Positions 7,386 to 13,051 are shown, numbered from the stretch's first letter. The stretch: 64,000 nucleotides of DNA from Candidatus Omnitrophota bacterium (GCA_028707125.1 JAQTUX010000001.1:725764-789763); one strand, 5' to 3'. The notes: generated by a model not told the origin, from the sequence alone. Program-made: numbers and translations.

Positions 7386-8336
7386 ATGGATATCAAGGGC
7401 TGTGAAATAAAGATCATTCAAGGGGATATAACCGCGCAGAAGGTTGACGCGATAGTCAACGCCGCCAACAATAAGCTGGTCATGGGCGGCGGCGTGGCGG
7501 GCGCGATAAAGCGCAAAGGCGGCAAAGAGATAGAGGATGAAGCTGTCAAAAAAGGCCCCATAGCCATAGGTGAGGCAGTCGCGACTAAGGCGGGCAAACT
7601 CAGCGCGAAGTTTGTGATACACGCCGTGACCATGGGAATGGACTTCCAGACCGACGAGAAAAAGATACGGCTTTCCTGCCGGAACGCGCTGCGGGCCGCC
7701 GAGGAATTAAAAGTAAAGTCCCTTGCCTTTCCCGCGCTTGGCTGCGGAGTGGGGGGATTTTCTCTTGTTGCCGCGGCTAAGATAATGTCTCAGGAAGTGT
7801 TGAGGCATCTAAGATACAGCGATTCGCGGCTTAAAGAGATCGTGTTCGCGCTTTATGATAAGGAGGGTTTTGAAATATTTGACAAGCACGTAAACGGTTA
7901 TTTAGATTATATGCTCAATAAATTAGGCAACGGCCCTTATGTCACCGTGGACGCCTTAATAGAGATGCCTGACAACAGGATAGTTTTAATTGAGCGCCAA
8001 AATCCGCCGTTCGGCTGGGCAATACCCGGCGGGTTTGTGGATTACGGCGAGAGTTTAGAGGACGCGGCCAGGCGCGAGGCAGAAGAGGAGACCGGTTTAA
8101 GGATCACGGGGCTGAAGCAATTCCATACTTATTCAGAACCGAAGAGGGACCCGCGTTTCCACACTATAGGCACGGTATATATTGCTAAAGCCGAAGGCAG
8201 CATCAAGGCAGGTGATGACGCGGCAAAGGCGGCGGCATTTACGCCGGATGAGGCGATGAAGCTGGATCTTGCCTTTGACCATAAGGACATCCTGCGGGAT
8301 TATTTAGAGTATAAGAATAGGGGGGCAGGTGTCTAG
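7386..8336 (+). CDS. Macro domain (ADP-ribose binding/processing) fused to NUDIX hydrolase (ADP-ribose pyrophosphatase-like)
   Basis: The N-terminal [32 protein letters not shown] is a macro domain. The C-terminal [24 protein letters not shown] is a Nudix box. Confidence 0.8.
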
Positions 8337-8697
8337 CAGGAATTTCCTGGAGAGTTTTAAATATGCCTTTGACGGGCTGGGCTTTGCCATCCGCACAGAG
8401 ACGCATATACGCATCCATATAGCGTTCGCCTGCTTCGCGGTTTTGTTCGCCGTATTGCTCAAAGTCGCCCGGATAGAATTCCTGTTTATTTGCGTATCCA
8501 TAGCGCTGGTATTCGTGGCGGAGATAGTAAACACCGCCTTTGAGATCCTTATAGATTTCCTTAAGGGCCAGAAAAAAAGCGTTTCAATAAGGGTGCTGAA
8601 GGATATTGCAGCTGCCGGCGTTCTCGTCGCCAGTATCAATTCTCTTATCGTCGCCTGTTTTATCCTGGCGCCCAAGTTCATCAAGCTGTTCGCCTAA
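8329..8697 (+). CDS. dgkA: Diacylglycerol kinase / undecaprenol kinase family (DgkA)
   Basis: A 122-aa three-TM protein. [18 protein letters not shown]...[12 protein letters not shown] is DgkA-like. Confidence 0.8.
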
Positions 8698-8710: not shown

Positions 8711-9442
8711 ATGGAGATCACGGTCCAGTATAAAGGCAATATAGTGGTCCTGTCCGTCTCAGGGGAGATCGATATAAACGCTTCAGAGTTGGTGGAGAGG
8801 GTCGGCTGGTGCATCAGGAGCGGTTTCAAGGATATACTCTGCAATTTTGAGGAAGTGAATTTTGTGGATTACGAGGGCCTGTCCGTATTGACCATTGCCT
8901 ATAAGAACGTGATAAATAATAAATGCAGGATCAAGTTTGTGAACGTCCCCGTCTATATAAGGCGGCTTTTTGAACTGGTGCATATGGACAGCGTATTTGA
9001 GGTATACGATAACATGGAACTGGCATTGAACGCGTTTAAGGAAGACAGGGCCATAGCCGAGATACAGAGCAAGAAACTGAGGAGGAGGTTCAGGCGGCTG
9101 CACTTTGAGCAGACAGTGGAATACTGGCCCGGACAGGCGGGCGGCAAGCCGCATAAGGGCAAGATCCTGAATTTGAGCGCCATAGGCGCTTTGATATTCT
9201 GCGACAAGATATATCCGTTAGGCGAGATCATTACTTTGAAGTTTGGCCTTGGGCCGCACATGTCAAAGACAGAACTTGAGGCCAGGGTCGTCTGGCATGT
9301 ATCCAGGGAGCTGCAGCATGAGATCTATCCGGGCATGGGTGTTGAATTCTATAAAATTGATTCTGAGATTCAGGCAAAGATAGTCGCTTTTGTAGAGAGG
9401 AACCTGGCGTTGGACAAAGACGCCTCCGGCTCTACCGCGTAA
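8711..9442 (+). CDS. STAS (anti-sigma-factor antagonist-like) domain fused to a PilZ c-di-GMP-binding domain
   Basis: The N-terminal ITVQYKGNIVVLSVSGEID...EEVNFVDYEGLSVL is a STAS/SpoIIAA-like fold. The C-terminal RRRFRR...NLSAIGALIF matches the PilZ RxxxR and (D/N)xSxxG motifs. An AAGGGAG RBS lies 5 nt upstream of the ATG at 8711. I rejected the longer ORF starting at 8606. Confidence 0.7.
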   Translation: MEITVQYKGNIVVLSVSGEIDINASELVERVGWCIRSGFKDILCNFEEVNFVDYEGLSVLTIAYKNVINNKCRIKFVNVPVYIRRLFELVHMDSVFEVYDNMELALNAFKEDRAIAEIQSKKLRRRFRRLHFEQTVEYWPGQAGGKPHKGKILNLSAIGALIFCDKIYPLGEIITLKFGLGPHMSKTELEARVVWHVSRELQHEIYPGMGVEFYKIDSEIQAKIVAFVERNLALDKDASGSTA

Positions 9443-9456
9443 ACAAGGAGGATGTT

Positions 9457-10497
9457 ATGCTGCGTTTTCTTACCGCTGGAGAATCGCACGGAAGGTGCCT
9501 CGCGGCGATCCTGGAAGGCATTCCCGCGGGGTTAAAGATCAACGCCTACGAGATAAATACCGAGCTGCAGCGCAGGCAGGAGGGTTATGGCAGGGGTAAA
9601 CGCATGCAGATCGAGCAGGATTCGGCCTTGATACTTTCCGGTTTAAGGCGGGGGGTCACTATCGGCTCTCCCATTTGCCTGATGATCAAAAACACCGACT
9701 CCAGGATAAACGAGCTTCCCGACGTTGTCTCTCCCAGGCCGGGTCACGCGGACCTGGCCGGAGTGCTGAAATACGGATTTCAGGACGCGCGGCCTGTGCT
9801 TGAACGCGCCTCTGCCAGAGAGACGGCGGCCAGGACCGCGGTAGGCGCTTTGTGCAAATTGTTCCTGCGCGAGTTTGATATCAATATCAGCAGCCGGGTT
9901 ATTGAGGTTGGCGGGGAGTCAGACAAGGACAAGATGAAGAAACGCGTAGATGCCGCCGTAAAGAAACGGGATACGGTGGGAGGCGTATTTGAAGTAAAGG
10001 CGATAGGGCTGCCTCCGGGCCTGGGCAGTTACGCGCATTTTGACAAGCGGCTTGACGGACGGCTGTCGGCCGCGCTTATGTCCATACCCGGAGTTAAGTC
10101 GGTGGAGATAGGTTTGGGCCTGGGCTACGCGGATAAGTTCGGCTCTGAAGCGCACGACGCGATCTTTTACTCGCGGAAAAAGGGTTTCTATAGAAAGACC
10201 AATAACGCCGGCGGCCTTGAGGGCGGCATGACTAACGGGGAGCCGTTGATCTTACGGTGCTGTATGAAACCGATATCTACCCTGTTCAATCCGCTGCCTT
10301 CCGTGGATTTGAATACGCGCAAGCCCAAAAAAGCGGCGATCGAGCGTTCCGACACCTGCGTGGTATTGTCCGCCGGAGTTGTAGGAGAGGCGGTCTCTGC
10401 CACAGAACTTGCCGGGGTATTGCTGGAGAAGTTCGGCGGCGACTCGCTTTCCGACATAAAGGACAGTTATAAAAATTATTTGAAGCGGATCTCTTAA
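9457..10497 (+). CDS. aroC: Chorismate synthase
   Basis: MLRFLTAGESHGRCLAAILEGIPAGL...GRGKRMQIE is a canonical AroC N-terminus; 346 aa. Confidence 0.9.
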   Translation: MLRFLTAGESHGRCLAAILEGIPAGLKINAYEINTELQRRQEGYGRGKRMQIEQDSALILSGLRRGVTIGSPICLMIKNTDSRINELPDVVSPRPGHADLAGVLKYGFQDARPVLERASARETAARTAVGALCKLFLREFDINISSRVIEVGGESDKDKMKKRVDAAVKKRDTVGGVFEVKAIGLPPGLGSYAHFDKRLDGRLSAALMSIPGVKSVEIGLGLGYADKFGSEAHDAIFYSRKKGFYRKTNNAGGLEGGMTNGEPLILRCCMKPISTLFNPLPSVDLNTRKPKKAAIERSDTCVVLSAGVVGEAVSATELAGVLLEKFGGDSLSDIKDSYKNYLKRIS

Positions 10498-10506
10498 ACA
10501 AACCAA

Positions 10507-11103
10507 ATGCTCTCCGGATTAATTGAACGCTGTATTGCCAAAGACAGGGAGGCCTGGCTTGAGTTCATACGGCGTTTTCAGGACACGGTAACCGTCAGTA
10601 TTAAGGCAAAGTTATCCCGCCACGGTTTTAGTTTTAGCGAAGAAGACATAAAAGACATATCGCAATCAGTATTTATTGATATCTGGCAGAAGGAAAAACT
10701 CCTGCAGGTCAGGGACAGGAACAGGGTGCGGGGCTGGCTTTCTGTGGTGAGCCAGAACGCCGGTATAGATTTTATGCGCAGGAATTCCGCGAGAAGCAGG
10801 ATTTATTCCCTGCTTGATGATTCTGAGGGGCCGGCATTATCGGAAGGGCTGCCGGATGCCTCCCATAATCCGGCAGATATGATGGAGATCAAGGATTTGC
10901 AGCATGAGGTCAGCCGGTTTATCTCTCATCTTCCTGAAAAGCACAGGATCGTATTGTCGTTATGCCTTTTGCACAACCAGACGCACAGGGAGATCGCGGC
11001 CATACTTAATATAAGGAACGCGTCGGTATCGTCCATAATCGCCAGGGCGAAGAAGCGGCTTAGAAAGGTTCTTGAAGAAAAGGGCTATTCCGGGTGCAAG
11101 TAA
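10507..11103 (+). CDS. RNA polymerase sigma-70 factor, ECF subfamily
   Basis: 198 aa. Region 2-like FIDIWQKEK and region 4 HTH HREIAAILNIRNASVSSIIARAKKRLRKVL are present. Confidence 0.8.
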   Translation: MLSGLIERCIAKDREAWLEFIRRFQDTVTVSIKAKLSRHGFSFSEEDIKDISQSVFIDIWQKEKLLQVRDRNRVRGWLSVVSQNAGIDFMRRNSARSRIYSLLDDSEGPALSEGLPDASHNPADMMEIKDLQHEVSRFISHLPEKHRIVLSLCLLHNQTHREIAAILNIRNASVSSIIARAKKRLRKVLEEKGYSGCK

Positions 11104-11143
11104 AACGCGTTTTTTTGCGTCTATATAAGTGAGGGCATAAGTT

Positions 11144-11578
11144 ATGGAAAGGATAGACGAATTATTAAGCAGGTCGTTAAAGAGCAATATGCGCGAGAGC
11201 GCCCTGAACAGATGCAATGAATGCCCCTCAGACGCGGACCTGGGCCTGTATGCGGAGGGGGGATTAAGCAGAAAGAGGCGCGCAGAGCTTGAGGCGCACA
11301 TTGCCGCGTGCCTTTATTGTCAGGATATGCTTGTAGTCGCAAATAAGGCAATAGGCGGAAGGCGCCAGGGCCTGCTGCGTATGTTGGCAGGGCGCAAGTG
11401 GCTGGCGGGCTGCCTTTTGTGTTTCGCGCTTTCCTTTTTTATTCCCAGGTATTTTATGCAGTTTCTTATCGCCGCTTTGATCCTGGGGATCCGGTGGGCG
11501 ACAGAAGGGGCAAAGAACGTTGTTATGGTATATAAAGAGCTCCAGCGATCCAGAAACAGGGAAGGGATAAGAAAATGA
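11144..11578 (+). CDS. Putative zinc-dependent anti-sigma factor (zf-HC2/ZAS type) with a C-terminal TM segment
   Basis: HIAACLYCQ matches the HxxxCxxC ZAS motif, followed by a hydrophobic helix. It sits immediately downstream of the ECF sigma gene. Confidence 0.65.
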   Translation: MERIDELLSRSLKSNMRESALNRCNECPSDADLGLYAEGGLSRKRRAELEAHIAACLYCQDMLVVANKAIGGRRQGLLRMLAGRKWLAGCLLCFALSFFIPRYFMQFLIAALILGIRWATEGAKNVVMVYKELQRSRNREGIRK

Positions 11579-11907
11579 AGGAACGCAGATTTGTCAGGTT
11601 AAGGATCAATATGGACGTATCTTACCGCAAATTGTTTGATTTTGATGAGGACTGCCCCAAGACCTGCGATGTTTCGGAAGACGGCCTCTGTTTGAACCTG
11701 CCGGAACGTCTTTCCATTGACAGGCACATTGAGCTTGCATTGCGTGTCCCTGATGAGGAGCCGATCACGGTGCGGGGCAGGGTGGTCTGGACGCGCGGCG
11801 ACGAGCCGCAGAAGAGTTTTCTGACTGGCCTGCAGTTTGTGGAGATATCCGAAGAGGCGAGAGAGCGCCTTAAGGCCTATGCCCACGCCAATTGCGTAAA
11901 GGGCTGA
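11575..11907 (+). CDS. Stand-alone PilZ domain protein (c-di-GMP receptor)
   Basis: 110 aa. RRFVRLR (RxxxR) and DVSEDGLCL (DxSxxG) are the canonical PilZ motifs. Confidence 0.75.
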   Translation: MKERRFVRLRINMDVSYRKLFDFDEDCPKTCDVSEDGLCLNLPERLSIDRHIELALRVPDEEPITVRGRVVWTRGDEPQKSFLTGLQFVEISEEARERLKAYAHANCVKG

Positions 11908-11925: not shown

Positions 11926-12384
11926 ATGAAGCGCTGTCTGATAATCGCTCTTTTATTGTTAATTGCCTTGCCGGCCTTTGCTTATGATTTAGATGATTTG
12001 TCTTCCCGTAATCTGGTTCTCCAGGCATGGAAAGCGCTGGCTAACAGGGAGTATGGCGTAGTCCATTACGCGGCTGACAAGTGCATTGAATTGTATTCAA
12101 AGGAGGCGGACAAGCAGCAGCGCCAGCTTCGCGATTTTGCCCCTAAGAATAAGGCATTTGACTATTGGGCGCTCAACGACGTTGCCACGGCTTATTTTAT
12201 TAAGGGCGAGGCATATGCGGCTGAAGAGAAATACGCAGAGGCAAAAAAGGCATTCAGGACTGTTGCCCGCCGTTATAAATTCGCCCAATGCTGGGACCCT
12301 CAGGGTTGGTTCTGGGAGGTGTCAGATGGGGCAAGGGAAAGGATAAAGCAGATAGAGGATTTTGAAGGAGGGGTATTTAACTAA
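11926..12384 (+). CDS. Secreted hypothetical protein (signal peptide, TPR-like helical content)
   Basis: MKRCLIIALLLLIALPAFA is a signal peptide. I recognise no enzymatic motif. Confidence 0.5.
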   Translation: MKRCLIIALLLLIALPAFAYDLDDLSSRNLVLQAWKALANREYGVVHYAADKCIELYSKEADKQQRQLRDFAPKNKAFDYWALNDVATAYFIKGEAYAAEEKYAEAKKAFRTVARRYKFAQCWDPQGWFWEVSDGARERIKQIEDFEGGVFN

Positions 12385-12490: not shown

Positions 12491-12519
12491 TTGACAGCAA
12501 CGTAACTCTGTGTTAGAAT
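12491..12519 (+). promoter_or_regulatory. Sigma70-like promoter TTGACA-17 nt-TAGAAT upstream of aroK
   Basis: Consensus -35 TTGACA (12491-12496) and -10 TAGAAT (12514-12519) are separated by exactly 17 nt. AGGAGG plus the ATG follow about 20 nt later. Confidence 0.6.
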
Positions 12520-12547
12520 TGCGGTTCAGATGATTTCAGGAGGCAAT

Positions 12548-13051
12548 ATGGCTGATAATATATACCTGGTAGGCTTTATGGGGACCGGCAAGAGCGCTGT
12601 GGGCAGAGAGCTGGCAAAGCGGCTTAAGCGGCATTTTATTGATCTGGATGGCATCATCGAGAAAAGAGAGAAGCGGCAGATAAGCGAGATCTTTTCCAGG
12701 GAAGGAGAGCCGCATTTCAGGCAGCTGGAAAAAGAGGCGCTTCAACAGGCAGCCAGGCAAGACGGCGTTGTGGTTGCCTGCGGAGGCGGCATTGTTATGG
12801 ATGACGGTAATATAAGGACTATGAAGGATAGCGGCAAGATCATCTGTCTGAGCGCCTCGGTTGAGGTAATATTAGAGAGGACTGCCGGTTACGCGCACAG
12901 GCCGCTGCTCAATGTGCCTGACCCGAACGTCAGGATCAAGGAACTATTAAAGTTACGCGCGCCTTTCTATGCCAGGGCAGATCATTCAATTGATACCTCC
13001 GGGCTTTCGGTGAAAGAGGTAGTTGAAAAGATCGAGGAATATCTAAAGTGA
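12548..13051 (+). CDS. aroK: Shikimate kinase
   Basis: MADNIYLVGFMGTGKSAVGRELAKRL has a Walker A, and ...ACGGG is a typical AroK motif. CAGGAGGCA is the RBS. The ATG at 12548 is preferred over the 12530 ORF start. Confidence 0.88.
   Translation: MADNIYLVGFMGTGKSAVGRELAKRLKRHFIDLDGIIEKREKRQISEIFSREGEPHFRQLEKEALQQAARQDGVVVACGGGIVMDDGNIRTMKDSGKIICLSASVEVILERTAGYAHRPLLNVPDPNVRIKELLKLRAPFYARADHSIDTSGLSVKEVVEKIEEYLK

Follow-up and report, generated by a model that had tools for sequence, protein, structure and literature searches.

STAS-based partner switching and the receptors of cyclic di-GMP (c-di-GMP) have each been well studied. STAS antagonists pair with anti-sigma kinases of the GHKL type, as in SpoIIAA-SpoIIAB and RsbV-RsbW. 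The c-di-GMP receptors YcgR, PlzD/VCA0042, PP4397 and MotI carry a C-terminal PilZ domain behind a flexible RxxxR linker, together with an N-terminal accessory domain, and in YcgR and PlzD the N-terminal domain takes up a new docking position when c-di-GMP binds the RxxxR linker. Here we describe a protein in which a STAS domain is fused to a PilZ domain, together with the genes that follow it, in Candidatus Omnitrophota bacterium. These genes occupy positions 8,711 to 11,907 of a stretch of 64,000 nucleotides (GCA_028707125.1 JAQTUX010000001.1:725764-789763), which we call the window. The STAS-PilZ protein has the layout of the receptors named above, with a STAS domain at its N-terminus and not a PilZN/YcgR_N barrel; for its mechanism, YcgR and PlzD serve as an analogy only. 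The HsbR-HsbA-HsbD system of Pseudomonas aeruginosa, reportedly described by Valentini et al. in 2016, is said to link a STAS antagonist to c-di-GMP signalling. HsbA is reportedly phosphorylatable and stimulates a diguanylate cyclase, and is said not to be a c-di-GMP receptor itself, unlike what we predict for STAS-PilZ.

In Streptomyces, RsiG-sigma(WhiG) sets a precedent: there c-di-GMP directly controls the sequestration of a sigma factor by its anti-sigma factor (PMC13232838). Unlike the window system, RsiG itself binds c-di-GMP, through helical motifs, and its partner belongs to the FliA/WhiG group of sigma factors; no PilZ, STAS or zf-HC2 domain is known to be involved. In Leptospira interrogans, the PrsW-PilZ fusion LIC_20173 is a predicted c-di-GMP route into the control of an anti-sigma factor of the extracytoplasmic function (ECF) type (PMC12943098). 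There the PilZ domain is fused to a site-1 protease, whereas in the window a free PilZ protein is encoded behind the anti-sigma gene, and both routes are predictions. The zinc anti-sigma (ZAS) factors RsrA, ChrR and RslA resemble the window anti-sigma factor in their H-x3-C-x2-C site with an upstream Cys and in their position directly downstream of an ECF sigma gene. The window protein differs from them in a highly conserved core that is probably a hairpin, in having no periplasmic domain and in its coupled PilZ gene, and the NCBIfam models for ChrR and RsrA scored far below their cut-offs on it. A paper on the reclassification of ECF sigma factors (PMC7826278) does not mention PilZ or c-di-GMP, and a review of PilZ proteins (10.1101/814665) does not have STAS-PilZ among the architectures that it lists. 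Our literature search found no description of STAS-PilZ, in agreement with an initial annotation of this DNA, made from the sequence alone, which named no well-described example of such a chimera.

Results

The core of the locus consists of five co-directional genes:

8711..9442, plus strand: STAS-PilZ fusion protein, 243 residues (Pfam, AlphaFold, Foldseek)
9457..10497, plus strand: aroC, chorismate synthase, a housekeeping gene that separates STAS-PilZ from the ECF genes (Pfam E 2e-103; NF003793 above its cut-off)
10507..11103, plus strand: ECF-type sigma factor, 198 residues (Sigma70_r4_2, TIGR02937)
11144..11578, plus strand: zf-HC2 (ZAS-type) anti-sigma factor, 144 residues (Pfam zf-HC2)
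11575..11907, plus strand: stand-alone PilZ protein (PilZ2), 110 residues (Pfam E 1.6e-15)

We give an even chance to the reading that these genes form two separate c-di-GMP-linked units, which now lie one gene apart in a small, dense, co-directional Omnitrophota genome. One unit would be STAS-PilZ, a phylum-wide c-di-GMP receptor, and the other an Omnitrophota-specific pair of ECF sigma factor and zf-HC2 protein, inserted between aroC and spoVG/aroK. About 58 of the 61 predicted genes in the window lie on the plus strand with very short intergenic gaps, and therefore adjacency and co-orientation alone mean little here.

The initial annotation had read the genes as a single module. Its description of the parts holds: an ECF sigma factor, a zinc anti-sigma factor and a stand-alone PilZ protein follow STAS-PilZ, and Pfam and NCBIfam support each domain call. 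All of the motifs that it quoted were found, namely RRRFRR and NLSAIG in STAS-PilZ, HIAACLYCQ (residues 52-60) in the anti-sigma factor, and RRFVRLR (residues 4-10) and DVSEDG (residues 32-37) in PilZ2.

The STAS-PilZ gene starts with an ATG at 8711, 6 nt past the ribosome-binding site AAGGGAG. Pfam placed a STAS domain at residues 3-104 (8717-9022; E 5e-13, 49.1 bits against a cut-off of 22.6) and a PilZ domain at residues 124-229 (E 3e-12, 47.2 bits against 22.5), and a linker helix (residues 102-120) joins the two. An AlphaFold model made with 35 homologues had a mean predicted local distance difference test score (pLDDT) of 88.5. In the model the PilZ domain is a six-stranded beta-barrel followed by a C-terminal helix (residues 218-239), and a low-confidence hinge at residues 123-125 (pLDDT <50) reaches into the RRRFRR motif. 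The N-terminal domain folds as STAS: in a Foldseek search of the PDB it matched SpoIIAA, RsbV and TM1442 (including 1thn_B and 6m36) with template modelling (TM) scores of 0.84-0.86. The C-terminal domain matched the c-di-GMP-bound PilZ domains of Alg44, MapZ, MotI and YcgR, with 2rde, 3kyf, 5vx6 and 5y6g among the matches. The fusion of a STAS domain to a PilZ domain that retains both c-di-GMP-binding motifs, as first annotated, is thus supported by Pfam, AlphaFold and Foldseek.

The first of these motifs, RRRFRR, lies at residues 124-129 (9080-9097), and the second, NLSAIG, at residues 154-159 (9170-9187) within the PilZ barrel (residues 130-229). R124, R125, R126, F127, R129, S156 and G159 are invariant in 35 family members, and N154 is conserved in at least 90% of them, which indicates that the c-di-GMP motifs are under strong selection. 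NLSAIG, like DVSEDG of PilZ2, fits [D/N]hSxxG, the refined form of the second PilZ motif (10.1101/814665). STAS-PilZ is therefore a likely c-di-GMP sensor, as predicted from its sequence.

The STAS domain is 25-27% identical to SpoIIAA (profile E 3e-13). It shares the fold of the single-domain proteins SpoIIAA and RsbV and their conserved interaction surface of loop and helix 2, in which D53, Y54, G56, S58, A63, Y64 and N69 are invariant or nearly so. It differs from them in the fused PilZ domain, in a score of 50.9 bits with the anti-sigma-factor antagonist model TIGR00377, just under the cut-off of 53.45, and in an invariant Tyr at the position of the phospho-Ser. This residue, Tyr54 (8870-8872; DYxGxS), aligns by profile with the phospho-Ser of SpoIIAA (DSSG) and does not vary in 35 sequences. 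Judged by these residues, the STAS domain is of the antagonist type and would not be switchable through serine phosphorylation by a kinase of the SpoIIAB/RsbW type. A phmmer search for GHKL kinases found none in the window and 68 loci (8276 open reading frames, ORFs), a weak negative because of the SpoIIAB and RsbW probe sequences used, and with the rest of the genome unsearched. No kinase or phosphatase was found among the conserved neighbours in 56 loci, but PP2C was not probed directly. Classical partner switching, or at least a local version of it, can be ruled out: the phospho-Ser is replaced by Tyr, and no GHKL kinase was detected nearby.

A word-index search returned 339 STAS-PilZ homologues, all of about 240 residues and alike in architecture; wherever a taxon is named, it is Omnitrophota/Omnitrophica. 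At E<=1e-30 an exhaustive HMMER search yielded 32 clusters (50% identity), and it also found full-length STAS-PilZ proteins of greater divergence; for one of these (P0188, locus L068) the neighbouring genes had no Pfam matches. This conservation across an uncultivated phylum of small genomes suggests a core regulatory role for STAS-PilZ there. Tandem STAS-STAS proteins of about 220-254 residues (P0167, P0181, P0209 and P0239) occurred among the distant matches to the STAS-PilZ profile. Contigs titled Methanosarcinales archaeon, Deltaproteobacteria or Planctomycetes (L054, L011, L008, L012, L026 and others) carry a typical Omnitrophota STAS-PilZ locus, and these bins are probably mislabelled or contaminated.

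The neighbourhood of STAS-PilZ was surveyed by a scan of GTDB species genomes, which gave 56 STAS-PilZ loci, with ORFs taken within 8 kb. Clustering of the neighbours showed that the contexts are clade-specific and mostly housekeeping. They comprise the order AroC-SpoVG-AroK-DprA-TopA-XerC-WaaA-STASPilZ, with WaaA directly upstream in 13 loci, and the orders zfHC2-UppP-STASPilZ (about 20 loci), CBM11-STASPilZ (6 loci) and CCA-STASPilZ (4 loci). Homologues of the window-type ECF sigma factor, anti-sigma factor and PilZ2 were found by BLASTP and hidden Markov model searches within 8 kb of STAS-PilZ in none of the 56 loci. The window-clade order, DgkA-STASPilZ-(RtcA)-AroC-ECF-ZAS-PilZ-[TPR/REC/SpoVG]-AroK-DprA-TopA, is retained only in L058, L057 and L059 (93, 69 and 54% identity). 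These loci form a single monophyletic clade inside a long conserved housekeeping synteny, so the conservation of their order is not proof of a functional link. Comparative genomics thus went largely against the proposed coupling of STAS-PilZ to the ECF genes, which is absent in the 56 loci and kept in three close relatives only.

The ECF sigma gene starts 9 nt downstream of the aroC stop codon. Its product scored 64.9 bits with the sigma70-ECF model TIGR02937 (cut-off 42.9) and 41.8 bits with Sigma70_r4_2 (E 8e-11, cut-off 25.7); the match to region 2 was weak (21.6 bits against 24), and no NCBIfam equivalog model reached its cut-off. Of the sigma regions it has 2 and 4 only, as group 4 (ECF) factors do. 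Orthologues are present in L057-L067. The anti-sigma factor matched Pfam zf-HC2 with 24.9 bits (cut-off 22.2), and its zinc site, C27 and H52-x3-C56-x2-C59 (11297-11320), is invariant in 7 sequences. An unusually conserved hydrophobic core of 34 residues follows (residues 85-118; 11396-11497, SFFIPRYFMQFL...), with an invariant Pro-Arg in its middle and a K/R-rich stretch at either end (+5 and +4), and there is no extracytoplasmic domain. The protein is probably a membrane hairpin with both ends in the cytoplasm, as its charge distribution suggests.

The anti-sigma family is narrow, with 5 protein matches in the word-index search and 7 metagenome loci. ECF and ZAS genes are adjacent in the window and in L057-L060, L062, L063 and L065-L067. 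More distant ECF/ZAS pairs have no PilZ gene downstream. In L062 the order is ECF-ZAS-SpoVG-AroK, in L061 the ZAS gene is followed by that of a TPR protein whose signal sequence is lipobox-like, and in L065 the order is ECF-ZAS-ComF-like-LptF/G-like, with no STAS-PilZ within 4 kb. Relatives that lack these genes have spoVG and aroK immediately behind aroC, and the ECF cassette is therefore an insertion at the aroC/spoVG site. The ECF/zf-HC2 pair is a family of its own, specific to Omnitrophota.

PilZ2 matched Pfam PilZ with 57.7 bits (cut-off 22.5). R4 and R8 of its RRFVR motif (residues 4-8; 11584-11598) and S34 and G37 of DVSEDG (11668-11685) are invariant in 4 orthologues. Its ATG overlaps the TGA of the anti-sigma gene by 4 nt (ATGA) in the window, and the same overlap is found in L057 and L058. 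The word-index search returned 3 PilZ2 homologues, all on contigs with ECF/ZAS genes, and a metagenome scan with the PilZ2 alignment gave 158 pattern matches, none of which was confirmed. With so few matches for the anti-sigma factor and PilZ2, the distribution of the cassette is drawn from few loci. PilZ2 is a later addition to the ECF cassette, in the window clade only. Its restriction to ECF/ZAS contigs and the overlap in three of four genomes single out PilZ2 as the leading candidate for a c-di-GMP input to the ECF sigma factor, and on this evidence it would be the likelier of the two PilZ proteins for that role. A recent duplication of the PilZ domain of STAS-PilZ was rejected as the origin of PilZ2 (21% identity, E 0.83). 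At L044:11798-12626 (minus strand) and L045:5725-6568, aroB (3-dehydroquinate synthase) and a DUF4416/radical-SAM pair flank two stand-alone PilZ genes in tandem; comparison with the L044 genes showed that PilZ2 is not their orthologue.

In a separate clade, a different small zf-HC2 protein is encoded directly 5' of STAS-PilZ (L032, L040, L042 and L051) or, more usually, separated from it by the UppP/BacA gene. Its parts are an MxC-x25-EEHLCxCxxCR motif at the N-terminus, an acidic linker of variable length and a C-terminal membrane anchor, and all 12 members tested matched Pfam zf-HC2. The zf-HC2/UppP/STAS-PilZ junctions are 4-nt ATGA or GTGA overlaps; examples are L044:6992-8717, L032:4704-5749 and L051:7585-8705. 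Such loci (19-20 of 56) form a single deep monophyletic clade whose outer flanks vary on both sides, and no ECF sigma gene was found within 8 kb in them. In about 32 of the 56 STAS-PilZ loci, no zf-HC2 gene lies within 8 kb. This protein was rejected as an orthologue of the window anti-sigma factor; hhalign aligned the zinc finger only, with a probability of 19%. An association of STAS-PilZ with ZAS-like membrane proteins has thus arisen at least two times independently.

Two further genes were conserved around STAS-PilZ. A response regulator with a GGDEF-like domain and the non-canonical motif GGDDF lies 5-6 genes downstream of STAS-PilZ in the zf-HC2 clade (L055:6752-7942; also L035-L037, L046, L049, L053 and L054). 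An EF-G-like GTPase with a Lys/Glu-rich, coiled-coil-like N-terminal extension of about 330 residues (L037:10464-13574) is conserved in about 13 loci.

Discussion

If STAS-PilZ and the ECF cassette are separate units, STAS-PilZ might work as follows. c-di-GMP would bind the RRRFxR linker and the PilZ barrel and reposition the STAS domain, like the two-domain receptors of the YcgR/PlzD type. Its binding, in place of phosphorylation, would then expose or hide the partner-binding face of the STAS domain. A fusion in which c-di-GMP replaces serine phosphorylation as the STAS switch is undescribed in the literature that we searched. The STAS partner would not be a neighbouring GHKL kinase. The best candidate class would be membrane zf-HC2 proteins, since a protein of this kind is translationally coupled to STAS-PilZ in one large clade. 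In the ECF cassette, c-di-GMP-loaded PilZ2 may bind the cytoplasmic part of the anti-sigma factor, or the complex of sigma and anti-sigma factor, and shift the release of the sigma factor. If so, an ECF/anti-sigma pair with a translationally coupled PilZ protein adds a second-messenger input to the known controls of ECF sigma factors. All of these proteins are small, and either soluble or easy to truncate, which opens the hypotheses to work in vitro without a culture of the organism.

Several points weigh against the reading of two separate units with PilZ2 as the input to the sigma factor. The AlphaFold model of the anti-sigma factor is poor (pLDDT 61) and uninformative on the choice between a hairpin and a single span, so that the hairpin topology is taken from the charge distribution. 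In L059 the anti-sigma and PilZ genes do not overlap and are separated by a gap of 70 nt, and PilZ2 could be a co-transcribed passenger or a member of the regulon, not a regulator. Binding of c-di-GMP by both PilZ proteins is likewise read from their motifs. Two independent zf-HC2 families adjoin STAS-PilZ in two clades, and two rearrangements have put STAS-PilZ within one gene of the ECF cassette; on either count, both units could be functionally linked after all.

Such a link is what the initial annotation had suggested, namely that c-di-GMP gates an antagonist exchange that controls the ECF sigma factor. In that single module, STAS-PilZ would be a c-di-GMP-gated antagonist that binds the anti-sigma factor encoded at 11144-11578 and so frees the ECF sigma factor, with PilZ2 as an auxiliary input. 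We regard this as unlikely. The domain assignments were right, the ZAS/PilZ2 overlap of 4 nt is real, the genes lie near one another on the same strand in four genomes, and the canonical STAS interaction surface is conserved. A second tail-anchored zf-HC2 protein, to which STAS-PilZ is translationally coupled in about 20 genomes of one monophyletic clade, also speaks for it. The exchange itself fared less well. STAS-PilZ and the ECF genes are unlinked in the 56 loci, and in about 32 of these neither a zf-HC2 gene nor any sigma or anti-sigma gene is close to STAS-PilZ; no ECF gene lies nearby in the zf-HC2 clade, and the ECF/ZAS pair of L065 occurs without STAS-PilZ within 4 kb. The two zf-HC2 families align over the zinc finger only, and known STAS antagonists bind anti-sigma kinases of the GHKL type, not ZAS domains. 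With Tyr54 in the phospho-Ser position and no GHKL kinase found locally, the classical exchange does not apply. Finally, aroC intervenes, in a window where adjacency counts little.

A broader form of this idea is also doubtful: STAS-PilZ could be a phosphorylation-independent, c-di-GMP-switched antagonist of membrane-anchored ZAS-type proteins throughout Omnitrophota, which in the window lineage converges with PilZ2 on one ECF pair. If true, c-di-GMP-switched STAS antagonism would be partner switching without a kinase or phosphatase.

It is similarly improbable that the four signalling genes are independent passengers, so that neither PilZ protein regulates the sigma or anti-sigma factor and PilZ2 serves an unrelated c-di-GMP output. 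The co-directional, tightly packed window would favor such a coincidence, as would the variable slot behind PilZ2 (TPR, REC or SpoVG), the ECF/ZAS pairs without PilZ in other lineages, and the stand-alone PilZ genes in unrelated contexts in L044 and L045 (aroB, DUF4416, radical-SAM). Against this, the ATGA overlap of the anti-sigma and PilZ2 genes has been kept in three genomes, down to 66% identity of the anti-sigma factor, and the 3 PilZ2 matches occur only on ECF/ZAS contigs. The anti-sigma factor has no extracytoplasmic sensor, and hence a cytoplasmic input is needed from somewhere.

Least probable by a clear step is a role for STAS-PilZ outside transcription, as a c-di-GMP-dependent regulator of envelope lipid-carrier or glycolipid enzymes in the manner of MlaB (a STAS regulator of a membrane transport ATPase). 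In its favour, the next gene upstream codes for UppP/BacA (about 16 loci), the Kdo transferase WaaA (13 loci) or DgkA (the 4 loci of the window clade), and the junction is often overlapping or very short. Against it, the enzyme differs in each of the three clades, a CCA-adding enzyme or a CBM11 protein takes that place in others, envelope genes are abundant in such small genomes, and an interaction with these enzymes is a conjecture from gene order.

Flanking genes

The five core genes are flanked by the following features:

8329..8697, plus strand: DgkA-type prokaryotic diacylglycerol/undecaprenol kinase (Pfam DAGK_prokar E 7e-26)
11926..12384, plus strand: secreted TPR-like protein in a variable slot (weak TPR matches; signal-peptide-like N-terminus; locus comparison)
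12491..12519, plus strand: predicted strong sigma-70-like promoter before aroK (TTGACA-17-TAGAAT, 11/12 matches, with TG)
12530..13051, plus strand: aroK, shikimate kinase, a housekeeping gene on the downstream side of the ECF insertion (Pfam SKI E 2.6e-46)

An Rfam scan of the 64-kb window gave no matches. The DgkA gene lies directly 5' of STAS-PilZ with a gap of 13 nt, and its position is the same in L057, L058 and L059. Envelope enzymes upstream of STAS-PilZ are exemplified by DgkA of the window (8329-8697), UppP at L049:7259-7990 and WaaA at L006:6704-7984, and may be a hint of an envelope function or background synteny.

Downstream, aroC is interleaved between the signalling genes and aroK lies behind a promoter of its own, both as first annotated; the predicted promoter just 5' of aroK would mark the downstream boundary of the co-transcribed string. 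A conserved ECF-type promoter was sought in the 3' end of aroC and the intergenic region, and none was evident. The slot behind PilZ2 varies among close relatives: it holds the secreted TPR-like protein in the window, a stand-alone receiver (REC) domain at L057:12903-13277 and SpoVG at L059:6144-6407. SpoVG is the ancestral occupant between aroC and aroK.

Macro and Nudix genes recur 1-3 genes from STAS-PilZ. In the window, 7386-8336 encodes a Macro-Nudix fusion, and in other loci a Macro-only gene (5 loci) or a Nudix gene (4 loci) lies directly downstream of STAS-PilZ (e.g. L044:8723-9289 and L026:6992-7498).

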